Virus record (IMG/VR): IMGVR_UViG_3300021476_000423
Location: 42,908 to 106,907 of that record
Origin: a virus
Length of the DNA stretch: 64,000 nt
Reading direction: 5' to 3' (one strand)
A model generated the notes under the pieces. That model saw nothing but the letters and a program-made list of their open reading frames with translations. It was not told the DNA's origin and did no database searches. Within the stretch, counting starts at the first letter, position 1, and the number at the start of each line of letters is the position of its first letter. Positions 27,919 through 62,543 of the stretch are shown in pieces. The translations under genes were made by a program, and so were the position numbers.

Positions 27919-30290
27919 TTCTTCTTCACCTTATTCCATATCTCATCTTCTTCCGAGTCTCCCCGAACCTGTTCCCAATAAGAGAGCACCGTATCTGAAG
28001 ATACGACTTTGATACCCTCAAACTGGTCATTTGAGATAATCTTACCATCGTAATTCTCTTTGGGTATCAGAACATATTTAAGTCCATATCTCTTGGCTCC
28101 CCGAATCTTCTCATACACACCACCGATAGCCGAAATCTTGATGTCACCTGCCCTCTCTTCCTTCAATTCCATCGCTCCTGTCATGGCTATGTCCTGTCTC
28201 AATGGGACTGGTATCAACTCGAACTCGGACTTGAGTTTACCAGAGGCTAAATGGGCTTTCCAGCGTTTCTTGAACTCTCTTGGGTCTCCTAACCACGACA
28301 TAAGAGAGACAGTCATAGTGATGCCAGCACTTGGCCCATCTACCTTAGTCTGAGAGAACTTGATGTGAACATAGCAATCCTTCCCTATGTCTACGCCGTA
28401 TATCCTAAGTATGGCTGTTCTGACTTCGCGTTTCGAGTCCTGCACATCGGTTTCATCGCCTCTCACCACACCTGTAACCTCAAAATTGGCATAGTCGTGA
28501 GAATCTACGAATCTGAGGAAAGACTGCACCTGCATTACATCGCCAGCCCCTTCGCCGCCGTGGGGAGCCGCCACTACTGCCAATCCGTTGACCTGACCTA
28601 CTTTGGTTCCAACATTCTCTACTAGCGAAATGGCTTCCTTCTTCTCCAATCGATGTTCGATAACCTGCTTCTCGATGGTTTCAGTGTAATGTTCGATAGC
28701 ATCTTTCACATGACTGTCTCGAACTATAACATCACCATCCTTCCACGAGAGTTGTGATGACCTCTTGAGCACTTTGATGACGGCTCTGAACATCAATTTG
28801 ATGTGGTCTTTGTCGCTGGCTCTTTGTTTCACATATTCAAGTATGCGCTTTACACCTGCCGCTTCCATAGGTGGAAAGCCGAACCTGTAAAGTTCGTCCC
28901 TTACGACCTGTGCCACAAGCATCTCATTGAGAGGCGTGGCTTCTACCTCATCCTTCAGTGCGATGATGTCACCATAGTTCTCAAACCTGTCTCTAAGAGC
29001 AGGGAATTGATTGATAATGCTATGTGGGTCGTCCAATACATCCAAATTGCCAGCCGCAAAGAGAAAGAACATGGCCTTGACAGGTGGTGTTTGAATGTTC
29101 TGTCCTGCCGTTCCGCCACCGCCGCTAGTGGAAGTATTATCGGCTTGCTGTTGGATAGGAAACTCCCCATCTTCCATTGCAGTCAGAAGTTTGATGGCTG
29201 ATGATTGAGAGAGATTGCGAATCTCATCTATGTAGAGAATCTTCTTGTTGGCTTCATGAATCTTCCCTGCTTGAACTCTACGGTAAGGTGGTTTGGCCAT
29301 TGCACCAGTTTGCCACGGAGACCACTCTATCGAGCCAAAGAGGGCGGCATCCGAAACCAGAGTGCAGTTGACATACATTTGAGTTGACTCAGGGTCATTA
29401 TCCACAAGTAGATTGGGAATGTGTTTTTGTTCGTTACCCTGTTGTCCGAACATCCAACGCTGTTGCCAGAACATAATCATGATGAACATAGGAAAGCCTA
29501 TCATGGTCATTCCCAAACCAAAGTAAACGCTGGCCGAATTCAACAGAGCAGACTCAAAATCCATGCCACCAAGCATATTCAATAACATCTTTCTAAGACC
29601 TAATGAAATCAACATAACCCCAATAAAGATGATAGTCCCAATGCCACCATAGAGCAAAGCGTTTTTCTTACGTCCTTTCTGTGTTTCCTTTATTTCGGCA
29701 TACTCAACTACCTTTTTGGCGGTTCCTGCTGGCTTGATATATCTCACATTGGCCTTGTAGCGATTGATGCGGTCTTCGCCAAGCATAACGTCTTCAAGTT
29801 CGATGCCCTCTTCCTTGTATTTGTCCTTCAGCGATTCGGCCATAACTTTGATAATGAGAGACTTACCAGTGCCGGGTTCACCCAACATAAGAATGTTGTT
29901 AGTTGGTCTTTCACGCAAAACTGCCGAAAGTTTGACTCCGGCGGCTTCTTTCTTTTCCATCTCCTGAAGTTGTTTCAGAGTGCGAATCCATTCTATCTCA
30001 CTAAGGTCAATCTTCTTGAGGGCGGCATCCTGACCGATAATCCAGTCCTTGAACTTCTCTGGCACACGAATGTCATCAGTAGTGTGCTTGGCTTTGGAGT
30101 CGAAGAATTTATCGGTGAAAGCCTTGGGGTCGCTACGCCATTTATCATCTCGAAGGTCGAACTCTGGCTTCAATATCTCCATGTCTCTCTGAATCTTTTC
30201 CGTTGAAACTTTGATTTCACCAAAGTCATGGTCTTCCTTACCTTCTCTCAGTCGTCTCTTCACTCGTCTAAAGACGCTTGGGATTCTCAT
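27915..30290 (-). CDS. lonB: Archaeal-type membrane-anchored Lon protease (LonB)
   Basis: IIGQD, GEPGTGKS, two TM helices inside the AAA+ domain, LYIDEI, GQVNGLAV, catalytic DGPSAG and GGVYEK. Confidence 0.92.
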   Translation of the reverse strand: MRIPSVFRRVKRRLREGKEDHDFGEIKVSTEKIQRDMEILKPEFDLRDDKWRSDPKAFTDKFFDSKAKHTTDDIRVPEKFKDWIIGQDAALKKIDLSEIEWIRTLKQLQEMEKKEAAGVKLSAVLRERPTNNILMLGEPGTGKSLIIKVMAESLKDKYKEEGIELEDVMLGEDRINRYKANVRYIKPAGTAKKVVEYAEIKETQKGRKKNALLYGGIGTIIFIGVMLISLGLRKMLLNMLGGMDFESALLNSASVYFGLGMTMIGFPMFIMIMFWQQRWMFGQQGNEQKHIPNLLVDNDPESTQMYVNCTLVSDAALFGSIEWSPWQTGAMAKPPYRRVQAGKIHEANKKILYIDEIRNLSQSSAIKLLTAMEDGEFPIQQQADNTSTSGGGGTAGQNIQTPPVKAMFFLFAAGNLDVLDDPHSIINQFPALRDRFENYGDIIALKDEVEATPLNEMLVAQVVRDELYRFGFPPMEAAGVKRILEYVKQRASDKDHIKLMFRAVIKVLKRSSQLSWKDGDVIVRDSHVKDAIEHYTETIEKQVIEHRLEKKEAISLVENVGTKVGQVNGLAVVAAPHGGEGAGDVMQVQSFLRFVDSHDYANFEVTGVVRGDETDVQDSKREVRTAILRIYGVDIGKDCYVHIKFSQTKVDGPSAGITMTVSLMSWLGDPREFKKRWKAHLASGKLKSEFELIPVPLRQDIAMTGAMELKEERAGDIKISAIGGVYEKIRGAKRYGLKYVLIPKENYDGKIISNDQFEGIKVVSSDTVLSYWEQVRGDSEEDEIWNKVKKK

Positions 30291-31268: not shown

Positions 31269-32831
31269 ATGAGTAGTGTCAATGAAAGGATGTTAAACTC
31301 TCTAAAAAGGGAGTTCAAAGAGGTCAAAGGTGAGACTCCTAAGAAGATTGAACTCGACCTTTCGGATATCATGGCCTTCGTTGAGAAGCACGTTAAGATT
31401 CCTGAGAAGGCTGGCCCTGATGCTACACAGGATATGTGGTTCGCAAACAGACCGTGGCTCAAAAACCTCTACCACGACGAAAATCCAAACATCATCATCG
31501 TCAAGGGCAGACAGATGGAAGTATCGGAATATGCCGTCAATTGGATACTTTACCATGCTCTCACCCATCCCGGCAAATTCATCTATGCTTCAGCATCCGG
31601 CTCTAAGGCCGACATCTTCAGCAGAGACAGATGGCAGAAACAATTGAAACGAAGTCCTGACCTTATGCAAATGGTCAGAAATATGGCCGTGAGAGAGACC
31701 GTTCTAAACAAATCAGAAGTCTACTTTTTAACAGCCTTTGAGGATACTGAAACTCTCAGGTCTATCGACGCTGATGCTATCGTGCTTGACGAGTTTCAGT
31801 CTTATCGAGCCAATGCCATTCCTATTGCTCAAGCAGGAATCTCACACTCATCCTTCAAACGAATGCTTGTCATTGGAACTCCAATATTGACAGGTAGTGG
31901 ATTTGACAACCTGTGGCAACTTAGTGATATGAAAGAGTTCGACCCTGTGACCAAAACTTGGTCTCCCTCTAATCCGAAGTGGGATGGATTATGGTCAGGC
32001 TATCACATTTCGCAAGAGTTCGCTGTAGGTGTATGGATAACTCCTGAAGAATTCGAGTTCAAGAGAAAACACGCTGAAACTCGGCAAGAGTTCGAGAACG
32101 AAGTATTGGGTCGCTTTTATGCGGGTTTGGGTAGACCAACTGACAGAGTTTACATGGAGACTTTGTTCTCGCCTATGCTCAACAAAGGGTCTTTCGTCAA
32201 TGGTGAGTTGCTGATTGCCGGAGTAGATTGGGGCATCACCAAATCCAATACGGTCTTCACTCTCATCCGACCACGACTACTTGAGTTACCAGACCTCTAT
32301 ACCATCGATGTTCTGGACGTTGAGAAAATCGACCAAACCGACCTCACTCTTCAAGTAGAGGAGGTGGCCAAACTCATCCGGCAATACCCTATCTCATTGG
32401 TCGTCTGCGACGAAGGGTCTGGACAAATGCAGAACCAATTACTCTGGAAACAATTCAGAGATAAGGTAATCAAAATTCAGATGATGAATGGATTCTTATC
32501 TACGCCTCTGAAGGTCGAGCCTACCATGTATGGGTCTATGATTAAGGCCAATCGCACCTATGCTATCGACCTCACAATGGACTACATTACCAATCCCTCT
32601 CGCTTCCGTTTCTACAATGAGCCAGACGAATTGAGAAGAAACTACATCATCAAAGACATTTTGGCCGAATATCCCGAACTCACAGAAGGAACCGACAAGA
32701 AGGTGTGGAAGCACAACGAAGACACCACCGACGATGTGCTTCTCTCATTGACGAATGCCATCGTAGGCTTCCAAATCACAAAGGGCACCGCCGTCCCACA
32801 GGATGTAGGCGATTGGCTTTCGTGGGCTTAG
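31269..32831 (+). CDS. terL: Terminase large subunit
   Basis: KGRQMEVSE (Walker A), IVLDE (Walker B), IGTP, AGVDWG and C-terminal DD nuclease motifs. Confidence 0.9.
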   Translation: MSSVNERMLNSLKREFKEVKGETPKKIELDLSDIMAFVEKHVKIPEKAGPDATQDMWFANRPWLKNLYHDENPNIIIVKGRQMEVSEYAVNWILYHALTHPGKFIYASASGSKADIFSRDRWQKQLKRSPDLMQMVRNMAVRETVLNKSEVYFLTAFEDTETLRSIDADAIVLDEFQSYRANAIPIAQAGISHSSFKRMLVIGTPILTGSGFDNLWQLSDMKEFDPVTKTWSPSNPKWDGLWSGYHISQEFAVGVWITPEEFEFKRKHAETRQEFENEVLGRFYAGLGRPTDRVYMETLFSPMLNKGSFVNGELLIAGVDWGITKSNTVFTLIRPRLLELPDLYTIDVLDVEKIDQTDLTLQVEEVAKLIRQYPISLVVCDEGSGQMQNQLLWKQFRDKVIKIQMMNGFLSTPLKVEPTMYGSMIKANRTYAIDLTMDYITNPSRFRFYNEPDELRRNYIIKDILAEYPELTEGTDKKVWKHNEDTTDDVLLSLTNAIVGFQITKGTAVPQDVGDWLSWA

Positions 32832-41514: not shown

Positions 41515-43020
41515 CTAAAAGTCGAAAGCAGTTGTAGCGCCAATCGTCAAACTGCCCGGATTAGCCGACGACGCATGGAACGCAATGGTATCTCCATTAG
41601 CGGCTTGGGTAGCAAGACTGAAAAGACCAAACGAATCCTGTGGCCAATTGAGTGCGCCAACCGAACCTGCATATACATAGATACTCTCAACAAACTGAGG
41701 AGTTGTTGAATCGTGCCATCCAAACCAATATTGTCCTATAGCGGAAAAAGTGTAAACCGTATCGCCTGTATTGATGCCATAATTATCTGTTATGACAGAA
41801 AGTGCTGTTGGAGTTGCGTCGGCTCCTGCCGCTATAGTCTGTGAAGCAGTTAAAGCAATGCCTTGCGTGGTGGTTCCTGCCATGATACCTGCAAGAAACA
41901 AACCCATTCCACTTATGGTTGGCCCACTCCATGTTCCTACTCCATCAACTGCGCCTGTATATTCAAAACCACCAAACGATGTTGGCAATGTAATGAAGAA
42001 AGCATCTGTATTGGTTGGAACATCAATGATTGCGCCAAATGCCGTAGTAATTCCGGCTGGAACCTCCAAAACTTGGATTCCTATCCATGTTGATGTAAAG
42101 GCTCCAAAATTGACAGTCCAATTTGTTCCCGCTAAAACAAGATTTCCCGCAAGATTTTTGAATGTGGCCTGATTGATGGTAAATGTTACAGGTGACGATG
42201 GGCTTCCTGTAAAATAGAAACCGCCATTCAAAACTATTCCACCAGTGAATGTTACACTTGCGGCTGGAAGTTTTACAGTAGAACCAACTGAGATAGTGGT
42301 TGCATCAAATGTGCCGGGGCCAGTAAATATTACAGGAGTGGTTGAAGCGGGAAGAAAGGTGCCTGCCGCATCTGTAAAAAGAGTTTGACCAAAATCAATT
42401 GTGACATTTCCATTGATGCTCCAACCCACACCACCCAATGCTCTAGTGATTGTAGTGCTTCCTGTAACGTGGATTGTTCCATAATTAATGATGAAACCAC
42501 TGTAACCTGTAAGACTGTCGGAAATAAGTTGGATTCCTCTTGTGAAGGCACCACCACCAAGATTAAGCGTCAATGTGTTTCCTGAAGGAACACTCAAATA
42601 TCCAAATGAGTTCAAAGTTCCATTTCCTTGGAGTGTTCCAGTCAGATAATTGTGGGATAGAGCCTGAGTGATAAACACATCCGTTGTGGCTGTCAATGTG
42701 ATATTGCTACTAGAGGCAGTAGAGAAGCGACTTGGTGAGATAGTGCAATTTCCAGATGTTACAATCATGCCACCACAAGTGAGACTACCCAATACATTGA
42801 GAGTTGCACCCGAACTCAAAGTTAGTGTTGCACCATTTTCAATGACCAAATCATTATCGATGAGAATGGTGGCATTGGTTACAATCGTAATGTTCGCTCC
42901 TGAGAAAAGCGTCATACAGGTATACTCGGTTGTCTGTCCACCTGTTCCTATATTGGCCGTCTGATTAGAGAATGATGTGCAAGGTGAGACAAACTCTGGC
43001 TCTAGGACAAACTCTGGCAT
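41515..43020 (-). CDS. Beta-helix adhesin/fibre-like virion protein
   Basis: G/T/S/N-rich GATLTL-type repeats. Confidence 0.6.
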   Translation of the reverse strand: MPEFVLEPEFVSPCTSFSNQTANIGTGGQTTEYTCMTLFSGANITIVTNATILIDNDLVIENGATLTLSSGATLNVLGSLTCGGMIVTSGNCTISPSRFSTASSSNITLTATTDVFITQALSHNYLTGTLQGNGTLNSFGYLSVPSGNTLTLNLGGGAFTRGIQLISDSLTGYSGFIINYGTIHVTGSTTITRALGGVGWSINGNVTIDFGQTLFTDAAGTFLPASTTPVIFTGPGTFDATTISVGSTVKLPAASVTFTGGIVLNGGFYFTGSPSSPVTFTINQATFKNLAGNLVLAGTNWTVNFGAFTSTWIGIQVLEVPAGITTAFGAIIDVPTNTDAFFITLPTSFGGFEYTGAVDGVGTWSGPTISGMGLFLAGIMAGTTTQGIALTASQTIAAGADATPTALSVITDNYGINTGDTVYTFSAIGQYWFGWHDSTTPQFVESIYVYAGSVGALNWPQDSFGLFSLATQAANGDTIAFHASSANPGSLTIGATTAFDF

Positions 43021-43062
43021 ACTGGTTTAGATATGCCTCTTGGAGTATTTAAAGACTACCGA

Positions 43063-43536
43063 CTAAGAGAAGAAACTCTGCCCGCCAGTGTCTACAAAAG
43101 GACTCGGGCTTTGGTAATTCTGAATGGGGTCTATCTCCGAGAGCATGGTGTAAAGCCTCACCAACTCTGATTGAGCATTTCCTTTAATTTCGGCAGAAGC
43201 CGACCTCATCGCATCAAGTCTATTGATGCTGATATCCCCAAGTGTAGCAGGAAGACCCGAAATCACCCAATTGACGGTCATTGTCTCAATCATATTGAGA
43301 ACCGCCCGCCATGTTGCCCACTGCTTGGTAAGGCCGAATAGGGAATCCTTTGTATGGTCTCCAAACAATTGAGTGGCCTGTTCGTTAGCCTGTTTGACGA
43401 AAGTGTTGAGGATATCCACAGACGTAGGAATCTGCCAAACCAAATACTTACTAGGGTCGAAGGATGTCTGTTGCAAATTCAACTGCTTTACAAGGTCTTG
43501 GGTGTCACAATAGGCTATCGGTGTATTCTGACTCAT
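43063..43536 (-). CDS. Head-tail adaptor (connector) protein
   Basis: AYCDTQDL start, helical body, LGDISI. Confidence 0.65.
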   Translation of the reverse strand: MSQNTPIAYCDTQDLVKQLNLQQTSFDPSKYLVWQIPTSVDILNTFVKQANEQATQLFGDHTKDSLFGLTKQWATWRAVLNMIETMTVNWVISGLPATLGDISINRLDAMRSASAEIKGNAQSELVRLYTMLSEIDPIQNYQSPSPFVDTGGQSFFS

Positions 43537-43573
43537 ACAATCCTTTATAAGCGACTGCGACTACTTAAACTCT

Positions 43574-44098
43574 ATGGCCACTTACGCTCCCGACCATGAA
43601 CCTAACATTCCTGATGAGGAACTACCGGAAGAGTTCAAAGAGCCGGAAGTAGCACCAGAAACTCAACCAGAAGTTGGTCTAGATTCTGGTGGTGCTGAAC
43701 TAGGAGCAGGTGCAGACGAAGACCTTGAGGCTGAAGTGTTATTCCAAGTGGCTCACTACAGCAAAGAATACAAGGCTCCGGCGAGTCTTGCTGACGTTGC
43801 CTTTGAGATTCAAGAAAAGGATAGCGATGTTCATAAGGCGATGGAAATGGCTGTCGAAGAGGGCACTCCACTCGTTACACCCATCCTAAAGAGTTTGGTC
43901 GAGCAAGGACTTATCATGGAGACCGAGTTCGGCGGATACATCACTACACCCGATGGCGATGCAATGGTAAAGGAGTCAGATACCCAAAGCAAACTTGGCA
44001 ACACCTATGAGAGCGAAAAGCATAAAGGCATTCCCGAAGATGAGGGTTCTGAAGAGCCAGAGAAAGTCGAAGCGGGTGTTCCGTTCTTAACGATGTGA
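43574..44098 (+). CDS. Acidic protein with winged-helix core
   Basis: LKSLVEQGLI..GGYITTPDG. Confidence 0.55.
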   Translation: MATYAPDHEPNIPDEELPEEFKEPEVAPETQPEVGLDSGGAELGAGADEDLEAEVLFQVAHYSKEYKAPASLADVAFEIQEKDSDVHKAMEMAVEEGTPLVTPILKSLVEQGLIMETEFGGYITTPDGDAMVKESDTQSKLGNTYESEKHKGIPEDEGSEEPEKVEAGVPFLTM

Positions 44099-44371
44099 GT
44101 TCCACTCACCAAAACTGAATTTGGCGGGTTTCTTCTTTCTAAGTAGTTTGTAGACTTCGACTATTATGCGCTCCATTCCTATTCCTGCACAAAACAGTAT
44201 CGTATCTCCATAGAGATTATAGTAGTCAGGCCAAGGAAACAAGAATGAGAGAAGCAAACCTATCATTGGACTTCGCAGAAAGACCATTGGCTTGAACCCT
44301 TCAAATCGACTGTCTTTGATTGCTCCTCCAATTGCGACCGCAAGACCAGAGAGAATGAGGATAGGATTCAT
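44087..44371 (-). CDS. Small membrane protein
   Basis: Three hydrophobic segments. Confidence 0.55.
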   Translation of the reverse strand: MNPILILSGLAVAIGGAIKDSRFEGFKPMVFLRSPMIGLLLSFLFPWPDYYNLYGDTILFCAGIGMERIIVEVYKLLRKKKPAKFSFGEWNSHR

Positions 44372-44412
44372 CTGAGAGTTTATTAAGGGCGGAAGGTATT
44401 TAACGTTTCAGT

Positions 44413-47400
44413 ATGGCCACAGTAGAAGTAGAAGCCTACCAACTCACTCCTGCGGAATATCAAGCAATCACCGACCACGCATGGGCTGGCGAAACCTGCC
44501 CTGCTTGTCAGGGGCTTCTTCAAAGCATCCAACAGGATAAAGAAGGAAATACTTTCATCTATCCAAATAGTGACCAAGCCCAACACATGAGCGACCTGTT
44601 CGGCTATTCTGCCGCACCCTATGGAGCCACAACTGGTTATCTCGACCCTGAAGACCCTTCATGGCAAAGGTCTGTAGAACACATTGCCGAGCGCCAGAAG
44701 GGGGGCGAACTTGGGACATTCGGGCCTCAATCGGGTATGGTGCGTGGAGAACCTACCAGAGACGAATGGCAGATTACCAGTTATCTTGATAGTCTTGGAG
44801 TTAAGTATGTTCACAAAATGAAGTTGGGTGAGATTGACCCCACTGAAACCGCAAAACCAAAGGTCGAATATGACATCTATCTGCCCCAATACCTCATCGC
44901 CATTGAAACCTCACCGGGCTGGCACATCGGCGGTAAGAGTCAACAGAGTTTTCCGCAAGTCATTGAGAACGACAAATACAAATCCAACTTTGCCCAAGAG
45001 CATGGCATCGACCTTGTTGCCTTCGACCCCTCAGAAGGGACTGAGAGTTTCATCAACAACGAATTGGTTCCACGGCTTCTGTCGGTGGGTGTGAAAGCCT
45101 ATCAAGTGCCAAAGTCTGAAGTTATCTCTCAACATGAATGGAATGAACCTATGGGTGGTGCTCCTGCCTACCAAGAACAGGACGATTATTGGAGCCGCCA
45201 AAAGGCTCCATACCATTGTTCTGACCCCGGTTGCGGAAGACTTTTAGAATGGTGTGAAGATTGTGATTCTCATCATCATGCTGGCCCTTCTTGGATGCAA
45301 GAACACATTGAATTGCAAAAAGCCATGAAAACACCATATTTTGAGGAAGAAGAAAGTGAGATGATGTTGGCGTGTCCTCACTGTGGATGGGAAGGACGGT
45401 CTGATGAAGCACAAGAAAGCATCGGAAAACGTGGTAGACTTGAATATCAATGTCCTCAATGTGGTCAAAAAGATAGAGCAATGCGTATGGGACAACTTTA
45501 CTATGACCTTCATCCAGAGGAGTTGGGAAAGGTTAAAGAACCCAAACCTCATGACCCAACAGATTATTCATGGTATATGGCTCCCTATGAGATGCCACAA
45601 TCGGAACCCGAACCAGAACCACAACCTCAAACACAAATGGAACCAGACATCTCCTCTAGAACCGTGATGTCGCCCTATCAAGAAGCGAGTCTCAATCAAG
45701 GTCAGAATCTTCCTTTGTTCCCTAGTCGTGGAAAAGTCAACACAGTCAATCAAGGCGGCGAAGGGAAGGCTCTTGAGTTTCCTAATCACTTGTTTCATGA
45801 GGAAAACAAAGGTTACAGAATCGAAGGATATAGTAGTTCGGAAGTTACAGATGCTAAAAAGGTCATCGAATATGAAGTAAAAGAACTTGGCAATATCCAT
45901 GTTCTCATTGAAGCATTACAAGCCTTTGGCCTTGAGATACCACTTGAAAGTGACGAAGATGTAGAAGCGGGTCTCAATATTTTATTTGATGCTATCGACA
46001 GAAAATTTGGGCCAGATGCTCAAGCCATTTGGTTGGTTGATACTGCTGAAGGTGCAAAAGAGCGTTATGGCTTTACCGCAGACGGCGAAACTCTTGGTGA
46101 ACCTTCTGAATATGATGTTCCTTCAGATGCCGTTGTGATTAGCAATTTGGGGCCAGAAGAAGGAAAACTCTATCTTATGAAAAGTGAAGAAGACCATTTT
46201 AACAGTGGTTTCGCACAAGTCGGAGAAGTAGGTGATTTCTTCCTGCATAAGAGTAATGCTACACAAGGAAGGGGGCAAGAGAGTCCGATGCAAACGAATT
46301 ACGGCTATCAGGAAGAATTACCATCTTGTCCTGATTGTGGTAATTCTGAAGTCTATTATGACAACCAAACCGAGAAATATAGATGTCCTGATTGTGGATG
46401 GCATGGTATTCCGAGACGCAAAGCCTACGGCTATTCAGAACCAATCAAACAAGAAGAATCAAATTTACTCACTAAGTTGGCCGATGCCTACAACGCCGAG
46501 AACGGCTTCAAACCCATTGACGAATCAGTGAAGTCTAAGAAGTTAGATGAGAAAGTAGGAGAACAGGTCGCCGAAACATTTGATGCCGCCGAACATGACC
46601 CTGCCGACCCCAAAGTGAAAGCGGCCTACGAAGCCCTGAAAGAAGAGTCATTGGCTCAATGGCAATTTGCGAAGGCGAATGGTTACAAACTCGAAGAGAG
46701 CAAAGAAGACCCTTACGACAACTACAAAGAGATGATGGAAGACCTCACAGAGAATCACACTCTCAAGGTATACTCTGAAGGCAATCCGCTACCGAAAGAC
46801 CACCCTCTCGCAGAAGAATCGCCTGAAGGAGTTACCTACAACGTCATCTTTAGAGGAATCCACGACCTCTTCGGTCACGCCGCCCACGACAACACTTTCG
46901 ACAACTTTGAGGGGGAGTTTGCCGCCTTCCTTTGCCATATGCAGATGTTCAGTGAAGAGGCCAGAGGAGCGATGGCCACCGAGACTTTGGCACAGACAGA
47001 GTGGCAAGAATACATAGGTGGAGTGGGAAACTATCCCGACCAGAAAGCCATCTTCACAGAGATTCCATCAGAATTGATATCCACCGCTAAGAAAGAAGAA
47101 GAACAAGATACTTTGGAAAGAGATTTGGAATCGGAAATAAGTTCTTTTGCTCAACTCTACAGTTTCTCGACCCCCGAAGGCAATCCTATTCCTCAAAATA
47201 CGGATGACCTATTAGAAGCAATTGGAACTTGGGGTTACATTGTAGGCGAAATTCCTGTTGAAGAAGCAAAAGGCGGCGATTTGATAGACACATTTGGCGG
47301 ATACACAACGGTTCCACCAATGGTTATCATCTATAAAGATGGACGAGTCGAACTTCCAAAAAGAGAAGAATACCCTACGACTGACCAGAGGTCAGAAAAG

Positions 47401-47448
47401 GGAAATCCTCTTGCGAAGTCACCAATGGTTTTTCGTCATGTAGGATAG
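44413..47448 (+). CDS. 1011-aa polyvalent protein: PD-(D/E)xK-like nuclease, Zn ribbons, ART-like module, HDxxGH zincin-like module
   Basis: EYDIYLP..IAIE; several CxxC pairs; GYR..IWL..A..RYG; NVIFRGIHDLFGH..GEF.A...H..MFS..A..A..TET. Confidence 0.65.
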   Translation: MATVEVEAYQLTPAEYQAITDHAWAGETCPACQGLLQSIQQDKEGNTFIYPNSDQAQHMSDLFGYSAAPYGATTGYLDPEDPSWQRSVEHIAERQKGGELGTFGPQSGMVRGEPTRDEWQITSYLDSLGVKYVHKMKLGEIDPTETAKPKVEYDIYLPQYLIAIETSPGWHIGGKSQQSFPQVIENDKYKSNFAQEHGIDLVAFDPSEGTESFINNELVPRLLSVGVKAYQVPKSEVISQHEWNEPMGGAPAYQEQDDYWSRQKAPYHCSDPGCGRLLEWCEDCDSHHHAGPSWMQEHIELQKAMKTPYFEEEESEMMLACPHCGWEGRSDEAQESIGKRGRLEYQCPQCGQKDRAMRMGQLYYDLHPEELGKVKEPKPHDPTDYSWYMAPYEMPQSEPEPEPQPQTQMEPDISSRTVMSPYQEASLNQGQNLPLFPSRGKVNTVNQGGEGKALEFPNHLFHEENKGYRIEGYSSSEVTDAKKVIEYEVKELGNIHVLIEALQAFGLEIPLESDEDVEAGLNILFDAIDRKFGPDAQAIWLVDTAEGAKERYGFTADGETLGEPSEYDVPSDAVVISNLGPEEGKLYLMKSEEDHFNSGFAQVGEVGDFFLHKSNATQGRGQESPMQTNYGYQEELPSCPDCGNSEVYYDNQTEKYRCPDCGWHGIPRRKAYGYSEPIKQEESNLLTKLADAYNAENGFKPIDESVKSKKLDEKVGEQVAETFDAAEHDPADPKVKAAYEALKEESLAQWQFAKANGYKLEESKEDPYDNYKEMMEDLTENHTLKVYSEGNPLPKDHPLAEESPEGVTYNVIFRGIHDLFGHAAHDNTFDNFEGEFAAFLCHMQMFSEEARGAMATETLAQTEWQEYIGGVGNYPDQKAIFTEIPSELISTAKKEEEQDTLERDLESEISSFAQLYSFSTPEGNPIPQNTDDLLEAIGTWGYIVGEIPVEEAKGGDLIDTFGGYTTVPPMVIIYKDGRVELPKREEYPTTDQRSEKGNPLAKSPMVFRHVG

Positions 47449-47782
47449 CAAGAACCTTTTTCAATAGAGTAACGTGCCAACATTTGCCTTTGCCCTTTGC
47501 CGCAGAATTGAACCAACCATCACACTCACAAGCGGCGATGTCATCAATCTTATTGTAGAAGACGTTGTATTTGCGCCAAGGAAAGCGTTTACTAGAGATT
47601 CTGGCAAACACTAAGTCACCATCTTGAAGAATATCGACTTCAGGATGGTTTGGGTCTTTCTGTGATTGGGATGCCAAGGACTTTCTTCCTCTTATCGGCC
47701 TCTTCCTTTGTTTCGTAGGGCAGGATTGTGCCAAGGTCGTAAGGCGCTTGGTCATCAAACGGGCCGACAGTTTGGGGAGCAT
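47375..47782 (-). CDS. SWIM zinc-finger protein
   Basis: CEC...CWH; real start probably later than the ORF-track start. Confidence 0.7.
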   Translation of the reverse strand: MLPKLSARLMTKRLTTLAQSCPTKQRKRPIRGRKSLASQSQKDPNHPEVDILQDGDLVFARISSKRFPWRKYNVFYNKIDDIAACECDGWFNSAAKGKGKCWHVTLLKKVLAILHDEKPLVTSQEDFPFLTSGQS

Positions 47783-47918
47783 TCCCGGCGATAGGCGCTA
47801 CACCACCAAGGTCTTTCACGCCGCTATCCACGATGATGCACTCCTGTCCCATGTGCCGCAGAAGGTCATCTTCTGTCTTGATTTCGACTTTGTGCGTTAT
47901 ACAGGCTTTTCCGGTCAT
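47640..47918 (-). CDS. Hypothetical protein
   Basis: Follows uS2 in the operon. Confidence 0.5.
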   Translation of the reverse strand: MTGKACITHKVEIKTEDDLLRHMGQECIIVDSGVKDLGGVAPIAGNAPQTVGPFDDQAPYDLGTILPYETKEEADKRKKVLGIPITERPKPS

Positions 47919-47920
47919 AC

Positions 47921-48589
47921 CTATTTGACCTCATCAGCCCCTAATAAAGATTCATCGGGAACCACAGTCTCAAAGGACTCAAGTGGTGGGATAATGACCG
48001 TATTGGGGTTTTCCTTGGGTCTCAGATAAGACCACACTAGAACGTAGAAGACTGTAGCAATGGCCTTAGTCCCAACATTATTGGCCGGAATACACAAGTC
48101 CACCCCCTCAAGAGTGGCATCGGTATTGCAGATGGCAATGACAGGAATGCCCTGACTGGCCGCTTCATCCATTGCTCTGCGCTCAAATTTGAGGGGTTCC
48201 CCTATCTTAGTGGGCACTCCACAAGTAGGGTCAGCAACAAGCAAAACGTCACACTCCTGATAGTATTTCATCAGAGGATTACTCAGAGTTCCGGCATACA
48301 TCCTACCCTGAAGAGTGGTAACTTTTGTTGCCATATGGAAGGATTTTATTCCATTCTCGAATCGTTTGTCGGTTGCGTAGACAACAGGACTTTGGCTCTT
48401 TCTCATGAACTTGCCAGCCACATCAAGTCTATCCAACACCAACTTGGGGTCTAGGATGGGATTGCCAGCCAAAGAGATTTCCTTGACAAAGGGTTTCATG
48501 TCTTTACTTACCTGTCCCTTTTTACCGAAGAGAATGCCAGTGGCTTCGAACACAGCCTCAGTAAGTGAGGCAGGTAATTCGAATGTCAT
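47921..48589 (-). CDS. rps2: Divergent archaeal ribosomal protein uS2 homologue
   Basis: DMKPFV, LDRLDVAGKF, GRMYAGTLSNP, DVLLVADP, EA...GIPVIAICNTD, VDLCIPANN.G..AI. Confidence 0.9.
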   Translation of the reverse strand: MTFELPASLTEAVFEATGILFGKKGQVSKDMKPFVKEISLAGNPILDPKLVLDRLDVAGKFMRKSQSPVVYATDKRFENGIKSFHMATKVTTLQGRMYAGTLSNPLMKYYQECDVLLVADPTCGVPTKIGEPLKFERRAMDEAASQGIPVIAICNTDATLEGVDLCIPANNVGTKAIATVFYVLVWSYLRPKENPNTVIIPPLESFETVVPDESLLGADEVK

Positions 48590-48780
48590 CTGACGATTCT
48601 CACCACTTTCTTAGGATTAGGATTCGGAATGACGATTTCAATAACGTGCCCTGTATCGTTGATAATGTGATAGTCGTAAATGATGATTTCATCATTAGGT
48701 GGCATAATTCTCCTAATGTCATTTCCGCTTGGTGGAACAGCAGTTGCAACCTTGAGTTTATCGTTATTGGCTAACTTCAC
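48586..48780 (-). CDS. Microprotein with MKLANNDKL N-terminus
   Basis: GTG start; ATGA-coupled to uS2. Confidence 0.6.
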   Translation of the reverse strand: MKLANNDKLKVATAVPPSGNDIRRIMPPNDEIIIYDYHIINDTGHVIEIVIPNPNPKKVVRIVR

Positions 48781-49987
48781 TCTTCTTCACTTTGTCTACG
48801 GCTTTGACAAGTTCATTGAGAAGCACTTCAGAATCGTTCACCAAACCCTTCGCAGACCCGGCTGGCTGAAGTCCACCACCATCTATGTAAGCAGGGTTGG
48901 CCGACCTAAAGACCTTTCCAATGTGAAGTCCCGGCTTCATCTTGTAAACGTTTGCACCACTAGAGGCAAGAACAGCCACTTCGGTTGGGCCACGCCCTGA
49001 GATGTGAATCTCCACGCCGGGTATGTCATTGATGACAAACTGTGCCTTCTTGGTCATCCCAAGCCGTTTGCTGGCGAGAGCCGCACCAAGGTTCCATTTG
49101 TGACTTAGAATGGTCACATCAAAATCGGGATAGTGGAGTAGAGTAGAATTACCCTTACCTTCGGCCTTGGAATGCTCCTTCTCCCATTCGGCTTGAAGCA
49201 GAAGCAGAACCTTTGTGTTGTTGTTCTTACCGTCCTTAAAGAGTGGAGTCTTCTCAATCTCATCCTTTGTGCCCAACAGTCGGTTGAACTCAATCCAATT
49301 GGAAATCCAATCCATCTCCTTCATGGCGGCAAACGCGAGTAGCGGAGCGTTGTCAAATAGCATTCGGCGTGGAACATGAAGTAGTTTGGCGTAGAAATTG
49401 AGCAAGCCAAAGTCGTAGGATGCACCATCCTTGGTAGACATGAACAAACCAGTGAGGTAGGGCGAAACAGAGAGAAGTTGGGAATAGAGAGCATAACCTC
49501 TCGGATTCCTTTTGGGGTCTGTCGCAACATCGCCCACTAATCCGATGAGTGCCCATCTAACATTGATAGGAACCTTCTCCCTAAACAATTCATAGGCCAG
49601 TCCTGTTGTGCAAGACTCGGTAGTGGAATCATAGAAGAACTTGTCCTTGAACATCGACCTCAGATTGGAGAGTTTGACCTGATATTCGTTCATGGTTTCA
49701 GGAGTCTCAACTATGGGGTCGGGAGGATGATTATCCAAAATCGTGACACCTGCTCCTGTTCCAAGGATGTCTAAAGCCACATCCAGCATCTCAAGACCGC
49801 TTCCAAGGTCAAGGAGATAGACTTGCTTGGGGTCGTAAGAAAGAATCTTCTGAACATCCTGCTTCTGAACACCAAAGATGTTCCACTTCTGAAATAGGGT
49901 GGTAGCATCGGGGTAAGCCGACGCTACAATCTTTGCGGCGCAGAGTCCATCAGAGTCTTCGTCTGAAAAGATAAGAGTATCAACCAT
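48764..49987 (-). CDS. DHH/DHHA1 phosphoesterase (RecJ/GAN/Cdc45-like)
   Basis: DEDSDG, LDLG, LDNH, GLVGD, ISGR, GGGL. Confidence 0.8.
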   Translation of the reverse strand: MVDTLIFSDEDSDGLCAAKIVASAYPDATTLFQKWNIFGVQKQDVQKILSYDPKQVYLLDLGSGLEMLDVALDILGTGAGVTILDNHPPDPIVETPETMNEYQVKLSNLRSMFKDKFFYDSTTESCTTGLAYELFREKVPINVRWALIGLVGDVATDPKRNPRGYALYSQLLSVSPYLTGLFMSTKDGASYDFGLLNFYAKLLHVPRRMLFDNAPLLAFAAMKEMDWISNWIEFNRLLGTKDEIEKTPLFKDGKNNNTKVLLLLQAEWEKEHSKAEGKGNSTLLHYPDFDVTILSHKWNLGAALASKRLGMTKKAQFVINDIPGVEIHISGRGPTEVAVLASSGANVYKMKPGLHIGKVFRSANPAYIDGGGLQPAGSAKGLVNDSEVLLNELVKAVDKVKKSEVSQ

Positions 49988-49998
49988 GTGATTGACCT

Positions 49999-50694
49999 CT
50001 ATATCGAGACACTTCCCAAGTTGCCGTAGGGTTCCAACTTCTTGTGGACGAACTCAAGCACATCGACATCAATTTTGTTGTGCTTCATCACATACTTGAT
50101 GCTCTTGCTGAGACCGTATCCTGCAAGAATCCAGTCGTCTGGATTGATTTCTGTCTTCTGCTCTGGTGCGCCCAAGAACTTGGCTATCACATCCAACCTA
50201 TTGGAGTGGAGAGCCAACTTATACTTGGCCAGAAGGTAGGTGTCCAGACCAAACATCTGTCTGTAGACGGGGAATTTGATTCCATACTTCAGGAATCGGG
50301 TTCTGAGGAATCTTACGTCAAGTCCACGCTGGATGGTTCCGTAGTGGCATACGATGATGTCATACTGTGGAAGTATCTTAGCAAGGTCTCTGAGAATCCG
50401 GCGGTCAGTGACCACCTTTCCCAACTTCTTGCTCAGTGCTACATCTGCTTCAGTGATAGCCTCTTGATAGTAGATTTTCTTGTCCCTCTCTTTTGCAGTC
50501 CATGAAATGCACACTCCAAAGTCTGCGGCTAACTGGCTCACTTCTATATCTAGATAGAGAACCTTCGCATCCTTCAGTCGGGCCTTTTCCCAACACGCTA
50601 AATGTGTGCAAGCATCGCCACCATCCTTGCAAGTGAAGACTCTGTGTCTATGTTCACAGATGAAAGACCTTATGTCGAGTTTCTTTGTTGTCAT
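49999..50694 (-). CDS. DEDD/RNase H-like 3'-5' exonuclease
   Basis: LDIE, HYG...LDV, DTY, NRLD, HNKIDV. Confidence 0.8.
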   Translation of the reverse strand: MTTKKLDIRSFICEHRHRVFTCKDGGDACTHLACWEKARLKDAKVLYLDIEVSQLAADFGVCISWTAKERDKKIYYQEAITEADVALSKKLGKVVTDRRILRDLAKILPQYDIIVCHYGTIQRGLDVRFLRTRFLKYGIKFPVYRQMFGLDTYLLAKYKLALHSNRLDVIAKFLGAPEQKTEINPDDWILAGYGLSKSIKYVMKHNKIDVDVLEFVHKKLEPYGNLGSVSI

Positions 50695-50698
50695 CTTT

Positions 50699-51109
50699 TT
50701 ACCTCTTCACTACGATGCTTCCTTTGGGCACTATATAGGTGTTTTTGAGATAATGGATTAGAATGTCACATTTTACTCTCTTTATCTTGAGATATGGTTG
50801 TAAAGCATAACAAATACGAAGAACGTCAATCTTCGCTTGAACTCGCCACTCAATTTGGGCATGGGGATTTGAACCACTATAGCCCTTTCCCACAAAATAT
50901 CTCTTTGGCCGAAAATAGATATGACCTGCCGCAAAGAAACGCTGTATCTCCTTCATAAGAGCCATATTTGTAGGCGTATGTATAACTGCAAATTTCACTG
51001 TGCCCTTTTTATGGGCATATGTTTTCCCTTTGTAGTGGGAACTACTATTACTTAAAAAGAAACTGCCTTCACCATCCATGAGACCTGCTATATATTGAGC
51101 AGAAAGCAC
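50699..51109 (-). CDS. Free-standing single-motif LAGLIDADG homing endonuclease
   Basis: YIAGLMDGEGSF; LQPYLKIKR. Confidence 0.85.
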   Translation of the reverse strand: MLSAQYIAGLMDGEGSFFLSNSSSHYKGKTYAHKKGTVKFAVIHTPTNMALMKEIQRFFAAGHIYFRPKRYFVGKGYSGSNPHAQIEWRVQAKIDVLRICYALQPYLKIKRVKCDILIHYLKNTYIVPKGSIVVKR

Positions 51110-51729
51110 TATCTCACTATCTTTACTGCGTCTCCAACAGTTTGAAGATTCTCTTCTGTGCCTACATCAACGGCCTTTGTCTTAATGACCTTGAAATCCG
51201 TTCCACGCTGAATCATTCGTGCCGTCACATCACCTATCTTGCCGTGAGTCAATTGACCATTGGTCAGGAGTAGATTGGTGGTAGTTTTGAACATCCCACT
51301 GAAACTGCCATCTGCTTTCATTACAACTGCGTTCTTGGCCGCAAGAAAGTCATCGACCCAATTGAAGTCCAGTCCGAAGTAGAGGTCGATAGGCGATATG
51401 ACGACTTCATCCATCTCATGATTCATGGCTAATGAGGCCGCACCACTCGTTACCCACAATGAGGGATTGTTGACATTCCCTAACGAGTTCTGAGTATCGA
51501 GAAACAGACTCATGTTTCGACCCAAATCCTTACCGTAGGTGAAATACCAGTTGTTCCAGAAGCCCTGAAAGACTCTATTATGAATAATCCATACCGTATC
51601 TGATGGTATGTTGTCGATGACTGCTTCAAAGAGATATTTGCCAGTCACCATGTCGGTAAGAAGATGCTTTGGAAGGGCTGTTTGTGGATATCCCCCTGCC
51701 ATGAGTATTAGTGCCCGTTTCTCACTCAT
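51109..51729 (-). CDS. Sugar-phosphate nucleotidyltransferase-like protein (divergent)
   Basis: ALILMAGG..LPKHLL, D, DVGT. Confidence 0.65.
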   Translation of the reverse strand: MSEKRALILMAGGYPQTALPKHLLTDMVTGKYLFEAVIDNIPSDTVWIIHNRVFQGFWNNWYFTYGKDLGRNMSLFLDTQNSLGNVNNPSLWVTSGAASLAMNHEMDEVVISPIDLYFGLDFNWVDDFLAAKNAVVMKADGSFSGMFKTTTNLLLTNGQLTHGKIGDVTARMIQRGTDFKVIKTKAVDVGTEENLQTVGDAVKIVR

Positions 51730-51764: not shown

Positions 51765-52619
51765 CTAAGCCGTTGAAGGCTTTGCGACCATATTCGTGCC
51801 CCTTCTGATAGTCCAGAAGTCACTAGCCAACTGAGCATCGGCTAGGTAGTCGAAGGGAATGTAGAAGTAACCGTGGTCTCCCCAACCAGTGCCCCATGAG
51901 TTGCGGCAGATGAACCACTGCTTCTCATCGTCATATCCTAGACACATGACTGCGTGACCTCCCAAAACAGGTTCCAAGCCCGAAGGCATAGGTATGATGC
52001 CTGTCGAATCTGCTGATGGACTCTCGAAACTCGCATAGACAGTGAATCCGTAGACGAAGGGATAGCCAGCATCGAGACAAGCCTTCATGTCGGCCAGACT
52101 GGTGATTTTGAAGTATTGCACAATTTCGTGATTGCTGGCTTCAACGTAGGCCGCTTGTGGCGGTTGGACAGCGAATTGGTTGATGTCGTAGGGCCAAGTC
52201 GTCTCATAACAGGAACCCTGACTTGCTAGAGTCTTGATTCCATCTCTTATCTCTGCACCAGAATCCGAACTTGTCGTTCCTTCGATAACCCTTTCGTTGT
52301 AGTAGACGAACAACCGACTGAATGCTTGGTCGGGTAGGCTGTCTTTAACCTCTAGAAACTGCAAAGCCCCTGCTAGAGCATTTGCAGTGCAACTACCAAG
52401 TTGTCCTTGGTCTTCGATGGGTGAATCATCGGAACGCAAATCTACCTTCTTATTATCGGAAGGCTGTGGTTTGGGTTTTGGATGGAAAAGATTGACTAGC
52501 CACTCGAAAAAGTAACCAATGGGTGTCTTCGGAAGAGGCTCTTTCACATCTTGACCCGCATGGTAGATGAAGTCTCTTTCGTCGGGCTTGTCCTTAATCC
52601 AACCATAAGAATGTGGCAT
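51765..52619 (-). CDS. Papain-like (C1A) cysteine protease
   Basis: DQGQLGSCTANA, SRLFVYY, GGHAV, RNSWG..WG..GY. Confidence 0.92.
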   Translation of the reverse strand: MPHSYGWIKDKPDERDFIYHAGQDVKEPLPKTPIGYFFEWLVNLFHPKPKPQPSDNKKVDLRSDDSPIEDQGQLGSCTANALAGALQFLEVKDSLPDQAFSRLFVYYNERVIEGTTSSDSGAEIRDGIKTLASQGSCYETTWPYDINQFAVQPPQAAYVEASNHEIVQYFKITSLADMKACLDAGYPFVYGFTVYASFESPSADSTGIIPMPSGLEPVLGGHAVMCLGYDDEKQWFICRNSWGTGWGDHGYFYIPFDYLADAQLASDFWTIRRGTNMVAKPSTA

Positions 52620-52673
52620 ACACTAATCATAGGAAGGCATAGGTATTTAAGGCTGGCGGCTGATAAAGTCTCT

Positions 52674-59244: not shown

Positions 59245-60165
59245 CTACGATGTGCGTAGTGAAGTCAACTTGTAAATTGACTCCGAATACGTCACGACCG
59301 GGGCATACCTAGCAGTTATTACAACATCTATCGAGTCGAAAGTTGGCTGTGGCCAGACATCTACACTGATTGGTCTCTTCGTTGCGAAGTAACCAAGCGG
59401 TGCATATGAGGCGGAGTAGTTCGACCCTGCGGCGGCAAGTATGTAAGCCCTTCCACCCGTAACCGGAATGTTAGGCGTTACTATTTGCTTCAGACCGTAG
59501 AGTTGTGGAGCCGACACAACGGTTCCAGCGCCTTGTGCATACAAGGGCTGTCCGTAGAAGAGCAGTGCGGCAAACTGAGGAATCCTAGCCAAGTCCTGAC
59601 GAGCCAATGGGTTCATCGCCATTGTGTCTGGTTCCAAGGCAAGATTCTGGATTGTCGAAATACCCTGCGTAATGTCGTCCACACCGATGGTTCCTGCGAA
59701 CACACCGGGGGTTCCGTCCATGAATATCGAAGTTCCAGTTACCGCAGTGCTTGTGAAAGCACCCGCGTTCAGAGCCTTCTCAACGTCTTGGTCAATTGTC
59801 ATGACCACCCGTCTCGCGGCTCTCTTCAACTGGTCTTCAACGATGTTCACTATCTGGTCTTCAATCAACTCTCTGGTGACTCTTACCCTCATGCCCACCT
59901 TGTAAGGTGTGACATTGATGGATGTGTAAGGCGTAAAGTCAGCCATAATCTCGGCTCCTTCTGCTGTCTTGCCGATGACTGCGGTTGACCTTGCACCTGC
60001 CTGCTTCGGAATCGAAGCACTCGCTCCGGTCTTGATGAAGAAGTCCTGAAGTAGAGGCTTCAATGCCAGATTAGGCATCGTAAGTTCTACTATCCTCTTC
60101 GCCAGTGCCGGGTAGAAAAGTGCTCCGGTGTTAACAATTGGGAAACTCTCTCTGGTCATAGCCAT
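59245..60165 (-). CDS. Major capsid protein (HK97 fold)
   Basis: AEGAEI, K.G....VTRELIED, MNP, LYGL.QIVTPNIP; follows protease, scaffold and decoration genes; GGTGA SD. Confidence 0.9.
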   Translation of the reverse strand: MAMTRESFPIVNTGALFYPALAKRIVELTMPNLALKPLLQDFFIKTGASASIPKQAGARSTAVIGKTAEGAEIMADFTPYTSINVTPYKVGMRVRVTRELIEDQIVNIVEDQLKRAARRVVMTIDQDVEKALNAGAFTSTAVTGTSIFMDGTPGVFAGTIGVDDITQGISTIQNLALEPDTMAMNPLARQDLARIPQFAALLFYGQPLYAQGAGTVVSAPQLYGLKQIVTPNIPVTGGRAYILAAAGSNYSASYAPLGYFATKRPISVDVWPQPTFDSIDVVITARYAPVVTYSESIYKLTSLRTS

Positions 60166-61286: not shown

Positions 61287-62543
61287 CTACTCTATGGCTG
61301 GCTTCTCGGCCAGAGGAAAGTTCTGAATCTCGCTTTCAGGAGCGCCCAATTCGCTCTCGCCGCCCATCCTCTCTAGGGCGTGTTGAGTGCCGCTTGGCAC
61401 TCGACTCTGCCTATGAATCTCTTCTTGCATTCCTTCATCATCACTCACTCCCTCACTAGATGAGTCCATTCCACAATTCTGACAGCGATACCAAGTCTTT
61501 GACCCTAAACTTCCGAGTTCTGCCAAAGGCCCACCACACTCAGGACACTCTCCCGCCTCTTCCTGCATTTCTGTCTTGGAAACTTCACCTGTTCCACCAC
61601 AAGATTGACAATCTGCACCACTGATAGGGAATCTTCCTAGTCCTTTACAATCAGGACACCAATTTGCCCCTTCATTTGGCTTCAATTTCAAAGACTGTAA
61701 AACACCTTCTTCCTCAAATTCTGCCGCTAGAAGTCTCACTTGCGTCTCTAGGACTGCAACTTCGACATTGGCCACTGCATTAAACGCTTTGATTACCAAT
61801 GGCATTAGATTGGGTGCAGAACTCTTTGGTGCGACAGTCTTACCTTCTTGCAGATGCCATCCTGCTTTCTGTGCGTTCTCTATCCTCTTCTCCTGAAGAT
61901 TGTCTAATGCGGCCTTGAAACCATAGGGCGCAACATCAGCATTGGGATAGGCCGGAATTGCAACGATGCTCTGCTCAAGAACGCCCGGATGTCGAGCAAT
62001 CATTTCAAGCGACCCACAACGTGGACATGGAAAGTCCAAATTATCGAGTGCGGCCTCCTCTTCCTTTCTTCCAAGATGAGTGATACAATTGTCACAGTAG
62101 GCTTGAGGAACAGCAATCTGAATGCTATTACTTTTGACATAGCCAAGCAGAATTTTCTCAATGAGACTTTTATCACTGCATTCGCCTTCCCACATAACCT
62201 TGCCCCCACCCTGACCATCTTCTTCAACCCATGCCTCTTCAACCTTACCAATGATAGAATCAACATGGTCTATGTCGTGGTCTTTCATCAATGGAGCACC
62301 CTTCAGTTGTGCCGCAACATCGTGAAGGTCTGTCAAAGGCACACGCCATTTGTTCCTGTTCTGGCTTGTGTCGATGGCCATTCCACCCAACTTCATGATG
62401 TGAGGAAAGACGCTAGGGCCGGATTTCTTGTATTCAGCAATGAGATTGGCATATTGCTTTGCTGTCATCATCGGAGCGATGCCCGACGAATACTTGAGTT
62501 TGAGACTTTCTCTGGTCTTTAGTTTGGGTGAGACCGTAGACAT
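61287..62543 (-). CDS. Prohead maturation protease with C-terminal Zn-ribbon modules
   Basis: NRNKW, LMKDH, IIGKV, SNSI, EQSIVAIPAY; then CPDCKG/CQSCGG and CPECG/CQNCG. Confidence 0.85.
   Translation of the reverse strand: MSTVSPKLKTRESLKLKYSSGIAPMMTAKQYANLIAEYKKSGPSVFPHIMKLGGMAIDTSQNRNKWRVPLTDLHDVAAQLKGAPLMKDHDIDHVDSIIGKVEEAWVEEDGQGGGKVMWEGECSDKSLIEKILLGYVKSNSIQIAVPQAYCDNCITHLGRKEEEAALDNLDFPCPRCGSLEMIARHPGVLEQSIVAIPAYPNADVAPYGFKAALDNLQEKRIENAQKAGWHLQEGKTVAPKSSAPNLMPLVIKAFNAVANVEVAVLETQVRLLAAEFEEEGVLQSLKLKPNEGANWCPDCKGLGRFPISGADCQSCGGTGEVSKTEMQEEAGECPECGGPLAELGSLGSKTWYRCQNCGMDSSSEGVSDDEGMQEEIHRQSRVPSGTQHALERMGGESELGAPESEIQNFPLAEKPAIE

Follow-up and report, generated by a model that had tools for sequence, protein, structure and literature searches.

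A tailed virus that probably infects Nitrososphaeria encodes a genuine full-length archaeal-type ribosomal protein uS2, and this copy belongs to an old, monophyletic and structurally marked clade, which makes it unusual among virus-encoded ribosomal proteins. In cells, uS2 is a stable part of the small ribosomal subunit, where it binds 16S rRNA at the junction of head and body. The viral gene (47921..48589, (−) strand), which has an ATG start and encodes a 222-aa protein of the archaeal/eukaryotic type, lies within the window, i.e. the whole stretch of 64,000 nucleotides analysed here (positions 42,908 to 106,907 of IMG/VR record IMGVR_UViG_3300021476_000423). A first-pass annotation, made from the nucleotide sequence, had proposed this identity, and profile searches and structural modelling bear it out. 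The NCBIfam profile TIGR01012 (uS2_euk_arch) matches residues 13-190 with an E value of 4.9e-31 (107.8 bits), and the Pfam profile PF00318 scores 38.4 bits against a gathering cut-off of 26.1, its aligned part being residues 136-185 only, in the C-terminal third. The top matches in the Protein Data Bank are S2 chains of archaeal 30S subunits (E 1.4e-24). An AlphaFold2 model built from a 70-sequence alignment is confident throughout (mean pLDDT 94.1, pTM 0.90), including an insertion described below. As assessed by Foldseek, the model superposes on archaeal S2P and on uS2 of archaeal 30S subunits with a TM score of 0.91, and with VIA-align it covers 191/193 residues of the archaeal S2P crystal structure 1vi5 (Z 28.4, rmsd 1.6 Å). 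The α/β fold is complete over the core and the bacterial coiled-coil is absent, as is typical of the archaeal/eukaryotic type.

The TIGR01012 score is about half the equivalog cut-off (211.5), so that the viral protein is best described as a uS2 homologue and not as a demonstrable equivalent. Scores on this profile step down from cellular Nitrososphaeria-type proteins (233-238 bits) to distant insertion-bearing copies (163-175 bits), the subclade of the window protein (107-110 bits) and a distant viral copy, P0029 (83 bits), all insertion-bearing copies thus falling between 83 and 175 bits.

The uS2 gene is viral, and a chimera or a host flank is excluded as far as sequence can show. The IMG/VR record, of 106,907 bp, is judged 100% complete, and its ends are classed as 'provirus'. 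This last point would fit an artefact, in which uS2 is a host gene in a provirus flank, a product of chimeric assembly or a decaying passenger gene. Such an artefact is hardly credible, because about 15 kb separate the gene from the nearer record end and it is placed between terminase and tail genes on one side and the capsid gene on the other. Indeed, the window encodes a family B DNA polymerase (9500-11653), a tail tube protein (23643-24566), a gpA-type large terminase (31269-32831) and an HK97-type capsid protein (59245-60165). In addition, an alignment-based scan of IMG/VR found uS2 proteins 53-56% identical to that of the window on four more viral contigs of 105.7, 91.4, 37.5 and 105.3 kb (L002-L005), two of which have direct terminal repeats and are complete genomes. 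All five contigs that reach the region carry uS2 beside shared neighbour genes, in the order 206-aa protein, RNase H-like exonuclease, DHH protein, uS2 and 92-aa protein. A terminase-profile scan added nothing beyond short fragments of the same virus family, and single-sequence scans of viral contigs with the window uS2 and two other insertion-clade proteins (P0012 and P0014) gave no matches. In metagenomes, about ten more viral-type uS2 proteins were found at 53-63% identity, all others being at most 35% identical.

Assembly, selection and the cellular distribution of uS2 also speak against an artefact. When the sample of origin, a cave metagenome, was assembled with a second assembler, a 15.5-kb contig spanned positions 42000-51506, and hence uS2, with no differences and at an even depth of 17.3 (17.6 for the next contig). 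Since the sequenced run is possibly the window's own source, this contig checks the assembly and not the sample. At 51477-51562, the second assembly forks into two variants, the major one with a depth of 15.5 and the minor one with 3.6, which differ by G>A, T>C and C>T and indicate strain variation in the gene for the 206-aa protein. The ratio dN/dS for uS2 is 0.13 between L002 and L003 and 0.14 between L004 and L005, the remaining pairs being saturated. These values indicate that purifying selection has maintained the viral protein even as it moved far away from cellular uS2. Each cellular genome that we searched has only its own canonical uS2. We found no viral-type uS2 in cellular genomes, the nearest match in GTDB being in Nitrososphaeria MAGs, at 35% identity, and 119/121 Thermoproteota genomes have exactly one uS2 match each, which is at most 38-40% identical.

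The composition of the gene is that of the virus, as the first-pass annotation had noted when it described a shared avoidance of particular k-mers. The whole genome has no AGCT, GATC or GTAC sites, where 275, 453 and 247, respectively, are expected, and CGCG occurs in the 106.9-kb genome at 14% of expectation. The uS2 gene likewise has none of the three fully avoided tetramers, against about six expected, whereas cellular Nitrososphaeria uS2 genes have 4-7. Because it shares this genome-wide avoidance, uS2 is clearly a long-term resident, shaped like the remaining virus. The pattern looks like the result of strong selection against host restriction systems. The contigs L002-L005 avoid the same three sites almost completely, and in a distant relative (G130) the avoidance is seen for GATC and does not extend to AGCT or GTAC. 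Other features of the genome are as follows. A 791-aa AAA+ protein (27915-30290, (−) strand), which combines the lid of archaeal LonB with a C-terminal Lon protease domain, is a LonB-like protease. No tRNA or Rfam families were found within the 64-kb window, and the single tRNA gene of the virus, a tRNA-Lys (CTT), lies outside it at record positions 10215-10292. Searches of the viral genome for the eS26 and L21e families gave no match. The product of an ORF at 61287-62543 on the (−) strand has a weak, sub-threshold match (E 6.8e-4) to TackOD1 ('Thaumarchaeal output domain 1'), a faint link to Nitrososphaeria.

We next consider the origin of the gene, for which a phylogeny was the check that the first-pass annotation had put forward. 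A careful maximum likelihood tree was computed under LG+C20 PMSF from 46 rows, 11 of which bear the insertion; viral context is verified for the rows of the window, L002 and L004, and for P0029 in a 100-row quick tree. All 11 insertion-bearing rows form one clade (support 100/99). This clade and seven Nitrososphaerota rows are separated, again at 100/99, from the 28 other rows, which include Thermoproteales, Desulfurococcales, Bathyarchaeota, Asgard and DPANN. The cellular Nitrososphaerota rows group together at 84/88, with the insertion clade as sister to Nitrososphaerota uS2, and the quick tree is consistent with this arrangement. P0029 is encoded on a 94-kb IMG/VR contig whose terminase is 41%, and whose uS2 is 32%, identical to those of the window virus. 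The 100/99 clade, the shared insertion and the presence of uS2 in so distant a relative point to one old capture from the Nitrososphaerota lineage, followed by vertical descent. The captor that they point to is the ancestor of a single branch of tailed viruses associated with Nitrososphaeria, with genomes of roughly 95-107 kb.

The distribution of related terminases agrees with such a host. Terminases 28-37% identical to that of the window are found in 17/401 genomes of the class Nitrososphaeria (14/398 when three unpublished genomes, G344, G396 and G440, are set aside), several of them on large chromosomal contigs, some of which are megabase-sized. None was found in the class to which the Desulfurococcales reference belongs, of which 301 genomes were searched. 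These loci are probably proviruses of a related viral group. Five of the terminase-bearing genomes were checked for uS2, and they have the cellular protein only, with no viral-type copy. The host is thus probably a member of the Nitrososphaeria, i.e. an ammonia-oxidiser-type archaeon. A magrovirus, with a Marine Group II host, was considered and dropped, since both the uS2 tree and the terminase distribution favour Nitrososphaeria.

Compared with cellular proteins, the viral uS2 displays a conserved core and a set of localised changes. Conservation was scored at positions at least 70% conserved among 51 cellular copies. Sixteen near-invariant cellular positions are retained (G18, G22, M31, R96, G100, N104, D120, P121, E142, A143, P149, D164, P168, N170, N171 and F206), and the universal uS2 motifs (G-x-H-x-G, R-x-x-P-G-T-x-T-N, D-P, E-A, I-P and D...I-P-x-N-N) are largely intact in the window protein. 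The first of these reads GILFG (H20L), an alteration already pointed out in the first-pass annotation. This position is H in 84% of cellular copies and L in 8/10 members of the close viral clade, and the L002-L005 subclade retains H. Changes that are clade-wide, or nearly so, among the insertion-bearing copies affect R39, D41 and L43 in the N-terminal hairpin, as well as Q138 (to R), N158 (to A) and E187 (to S or A), while P99A and T103S accompany H20L as further changes in the window subclade. Over the aligned core, the net charge is about +1 (pI 7.7), compared with a cellular median of +7 (pI 9.4).

The most conspicuous change is a clade-specific loop at about residues 122-135 (T-C-G-V-P-T-K-I-G-E-P-L-K-F; 48185..48226, (−) strand), between a strand (115-118) and a helix (135-145). 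About 11 extra residues after ADP had been noted at first; in the alignment with the archaeal S2 structure, they correspond to a 12-residue gap in the target directly after 'ADP' (D120-P121). An insertion of 8-30 residues after D-P is present in 19/19 insertion-clade rows of the alignment and in 0/51 cellular rows. Within the close viral clade, G124, P126 and K128 of the loop are invariant, and its modelled pLDDT is about 96-98. Judging from the sequence, the loop probably sits at the sheet edge that bears the conserved loops. Taken together, these features suggest a protein in which the universal core is still needed and one surface has been remodelled.

What might such a protein do in an infected cell? 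Given the fold and the invariants that have been retained, the best single reading is incorporation at the normal site, and we give about an even chance to the possibility that the viral uS2, altered on one surface, takes up the usual position of uS2 in host 30S subunits. The protein would be made as an internal, Shine-Dalgarno (SD)-led cistron of an operon that also encodes a papain-like protease and two nuclease-like proteins, and would join newly assembled or exchange-competent host 30S subunits. It has kept the uS2 core and almost every universally invariant residue. The remodelled surface, which all viral copies share, is marked by the loop inserted behind D-P, by the changes at R39, D41 and E187, which are lost, by Q138R and by the lower positive charge. 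Once occupied, the site would offer something different to its neighbours, i.e. the end of the exit chamber, eS17, the region around the 3′ end of 16S rRNA, the maturation nuclease Nob1 or a factor supplied by the virus. Several points count against a ribosomal role. The reduced charge of the core could weaken rRNA binding, the TIGR01012 score is at half its cut-off and decays within the viral clade from 175 to 83 bits, H20 and P99 are lost in the window subclade, the insertion directly follows the conserved D-P motif, probably on the edge with the conserved loops, and the gene lies among nuclease and protease genes rather than translation genes. A complex prediction of the viral protein with uS5 and eS17 of a Nitrososphaeria genome scored 0.01, which speaks neither for nor against binding.

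Published work on cellular and viral systems indicates what the site could offer. In archaeal ribosomes, the SD duplex lies in the mRNA exit chamber, which is closed at its far end by uS2 together with eS17 (PMC7531240, PMC7005279). Ribosomal proteins encoded by phages are usually peripheral and exchangeable, and for two of them entry into ribosomes has been demonstrated (PMC6375957). The uS2/uS5/eS21 cluster of yeast is a late arrival that fixes h35-h37 and makes the docking surface for the 3′-end nuclease Nob1 (bioRxiv 10.1101/2023.01.18.524556).

The docking of Nob1 on uS2 is also compatible with a role away from the ribosome, in which the viral protein keeps an RNA- or factor-binding face of uS2 and acts, free in the cytoplasm, as a regulator or decoy; an extra-ribosomal, RNA-binding regulator was also the alternative offered by the first-pass annotation. 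It might bind the leader of host rps2 mRNA and, by this form of feedback mimicry, stop the host from making uS2, or it might titrate a 30S maturation factor such as a Nob1 homologue, which would prevent new host ribosomes from being completed. The lower positive charge and the clade-wide surface changes fit a partial loss of the rRNA interface, and bacterial S2 provides a parallel, since it autoregulates rpsB-tsf. We nevertheless consider this role unlikely, because nearly all cellular uS2 invariants are still invariant in the viral clade, which exceeds what a single RNA or factor contact would need. These same invariants are accommodated by incorporation at the normal 30S site.

The operon raises another possibility. 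As the first-pass annotation had it, uS2 belongs to a viral operon: it is the seventh of nine close-packed, co-directional ORFs, which run from 52619 to 47640 on the (−) strand and whose gene order is shared with related viral contigs. The first encodes a papain-like (C1) cysteine protease (51765..52619; PF00112, E 2.2e-13). It is conserved at 63-65% in L002 and L003, ahead of the shared gene block, and no homologue was detected at the corresponding place in L004 and L005. Next comes a 206-aa conserved protein of no known family (51109..51729), syntenic in the relatives, followed by a free-standing LAGLIDADG endonuclease (50699..51109; PF00961, E 5.8e-8), which is found at this place in the operon in this genome only. 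Because the genes for the 206-aa protein and the exonuclease are adjacent in L002-L005, the LAGLIDADG gene is probably a recent homing-endonuclease insertion. The exonuclease is an RNase H-like, PolB-exonuclease-like protein (49999..50694; PF13482, E 3.6e-5) and is syntenic in the relatives. A 407-aa DHH/DHHA1 phosphoesterase of RecJ/GAN-like type follows (48764..49987). PF01368 is matched by 4/5 members of this family, which also show a weak profile match to archaeal GAN/RecJ structures (5ghr and 5x4h) and have the invariant motifs D-E-D-x-D-G, D-N-H and G-G-G. The sixth gene encodes a 64-aa microprotein with an N-terminal MKLANNDKL tag (48586..48780), and its TGA overlaps the uS2 ATG (ATGA). 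The coupling that had been pointed out between the two genes is therefore real as an overlap; since the microprotein is absent from the corresponding place in L002-L005, it looks incidental. Directly after uS2, starting 2 nt past its stop and preceded by GAGGT, lies a gene for a 92-aa protein (47640..47918), which has invariant C6, H9, H22 and C27 and a basic tail. It has no match in Pfam or Atlas and is perhaps a small partner protein that binds zinc. On the opposite strand (44413-47448, (+) strand), an acidic protein of 1011 aa, which contains several zinc-ribbon modules, is encoded facing the operon; its relatives are conserved but vary widely in length, with 575-857 aa.

In 5/5 genomes, the DHH gene lies upstream of uS2 (in L003, with three small ORFs in between) and the gene for the 92-aa protein lies downstream, directly or past 1-3 small ORFs. 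This constancy would be expected had the flavodoxin-like uS2 fold been recruited outside translation, to a nuclease module in which it partners, for example, the DHH protein or the 92-aa Cys/His protein. Eukaryotic uS2 (RPSA) has extra-ribosomal roles of its own, the profile scores decay across the viral clade, and a loop as strongly conserved as this one (G124, P126 and K128) is what a new interface should look like. In the distant relative (P0029, G130), however, the neighbours of uS2 are different, so that linkage to the DHH and 92-aa genes is not obligatory, and the invariants that have been retained are those of ribosomal uS2. A recruitment of this kind thus seems decidedly unlikely, and incorporation into host 30S subunits remains our preferred reading.

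The first-pass annotation had further described the genome as dominated by leaderless genes and had proposed that the viral uS2 remodels 30S subunits towards leaderless viral mRNAs. We assessed translation signals on a crude gene set, i.e. the longest ATG ORFs of at least 60 aa over the whole genome. Ahead of operon-first genes, TATA-like boxes show a peak of starts at −33..−28 from the ATG. In the uS2 operon, a TATA-like box TTAAATA, a putative promoter, is found at −31..−25 from the protease ATG (52644..52650, (−) strand), a spacing which predicts that this first cistron is leaderless. The description thus appears to hold for operon-first genes. It does not hold for internal genes, of which 32/53 (60%) have an SD-like tetramer at −20..−4, compared with 15% at random positions. 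The uS2 gene is one of these, with an SD-like GGTGAG (48599..48604, (−) strand) read 9 nt before its ATG (−15..−10). When loci of Nitrososphaeria genomes were treated alike, SD-like motifs were found before 76% of internal genes, and the contrast in SD usage that we sought between the virus and these loci was not found. These matching patterns suggest that the virus and its probable host class share one mix of signals, with leaderless first genes and SD-led internal genes.

A bias towards leaderless viral mRNAs would be a special case of incorporation, in which subunits carrying the viral protein are shifted towards such messages. Deficiency of S2 in Escherichia coli favours translation of the leaderless λ cI mRNA, an effect that operates via S1; to our knowledge archaea have no S1, which counts against this precedent. 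The leaderless look of operon-first viral genes fits the proposal, and so does the location of uS2, which marks the end of the exit chamber (PMC7531240). The exit region can set a bias of this type, as is indicated by eS26 of TACK archaea: when this protein occupies the exit channel, the SD duplex is kept out and leaderless mRNAs are favoured (PMC11698992). Against this, the virus needs SD-like motifs for its internal cistrons, uS2 included, and, because its pattern is that of Nitrososphaeria, a leaderless bias would not separate viral from host messages. Remodelling towards leaderless viral mRNAs is thus very unlikely.

A broader form of incorporation, in which the viral uS2 builds a virus-specific, 'specialised' 30S subunit, is also quite improbable in our estimate. 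The loop would then alter the occupancy of the chamber, whether by the SD duplex, by eS26 near the 16S 3′ end or by a hibernation or maturation factor. If this were true, ribosomes of infected cells could stay active and favour viral polycistronic messages, and the virus would have a handle on archaeal initiation without a cellular counterpart.

Whichever role proves correct, the gene bears on several questions. Nearly all known virus-encoded ribosomal proteins come from bacteriophages. Here, a deep lineage of archaeal viruses has retained a different, larger protein, which has a shared loop and which sits on the side of the small subunit where mRNA exits. It offers a natural, ready-made variant for probing uS2 in archaeal initiation, 30S maturation and ribosome exchange. 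In addition, its phylogeny ties uncultured viruses of about 105 kb to Nitrososphaeria, globally important nitrifiers with few characterised viruses.

How, then, does the viral protein compare with known systems? Cellular archaeal and eukaryotic uS2 proteins (S2P, RPSA/Rps0), the nearest being those of Nitrososphaerota, share its core fold and its invariants and likewise have no bacterial coiled-coil, and a C-terminal F-E-T motif is common to the viral and the Nitrososphaeria copies. On the other hand, the viral copy is at most 38-40% identical to cellular uS2, reaches half the equivalog score and is far less basic. Viral copies have the 8-30-residue insertion after D-P and have lost R39, D41 and E187 (and, in the window subclade, H20), and the gene lies in a viral operon, whereas the cellular gene lies in a ribosomal-protein operon.

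Among viruses, bacteriophages encode ribosomal proteins that include bS21, bL12, bL9, bL31 and bL33 (Mizuno et al. 2019, PMC6375957). These are likewise peripheral, captured from the host lineage and maintained under purifying selection in a viral genome, but they are bacterial, mostly small and near to the host copies, whereas the viral uS2 is a 222-aa protein of archaeal type in a deep, diverged clade. uS2 is not named in the main text of that study (PMC6375957), nor in a 2026 paper on the richest viral ribosomal-protein set. L21e of the haloarchaeal Hafunaviridae, described as the first example of a ribosomal protein encoded by archaeal viruses (Liu et al. 2021, PMC8651126), is the single published case from an archaeal virus that we found. 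It, too, is a ribosomal protein of tailed archaeal viruses, but it is a different protein, of the other subunit and in another host phylum. A tblastn search of 50,697 GenBank phage and virus records for an archaeal-type uS2 found none, which agrees, as do both of the above studies, with the initial impression that a viral uS2 is unusual. We found no published uS2 from an archaeal virus, and the nearest precedent is rpS2 of the Borg elements of Methanoperedens, some of which carry a copy that groups beside that of the host lineage (Al-Shayeb et al. 2022, PMC9605863, Extended Data Fig. 9B). By its published description, rather than by sequence, Borg rpS2 (PMC9605863) is alike in that an archaeal mobile element has its own rpS2. 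Borgs, however, are giant extrachromosomal elements without capsid genes, associated with a different phylum, whereas the uS2 described here is encoded by a tailed virus.
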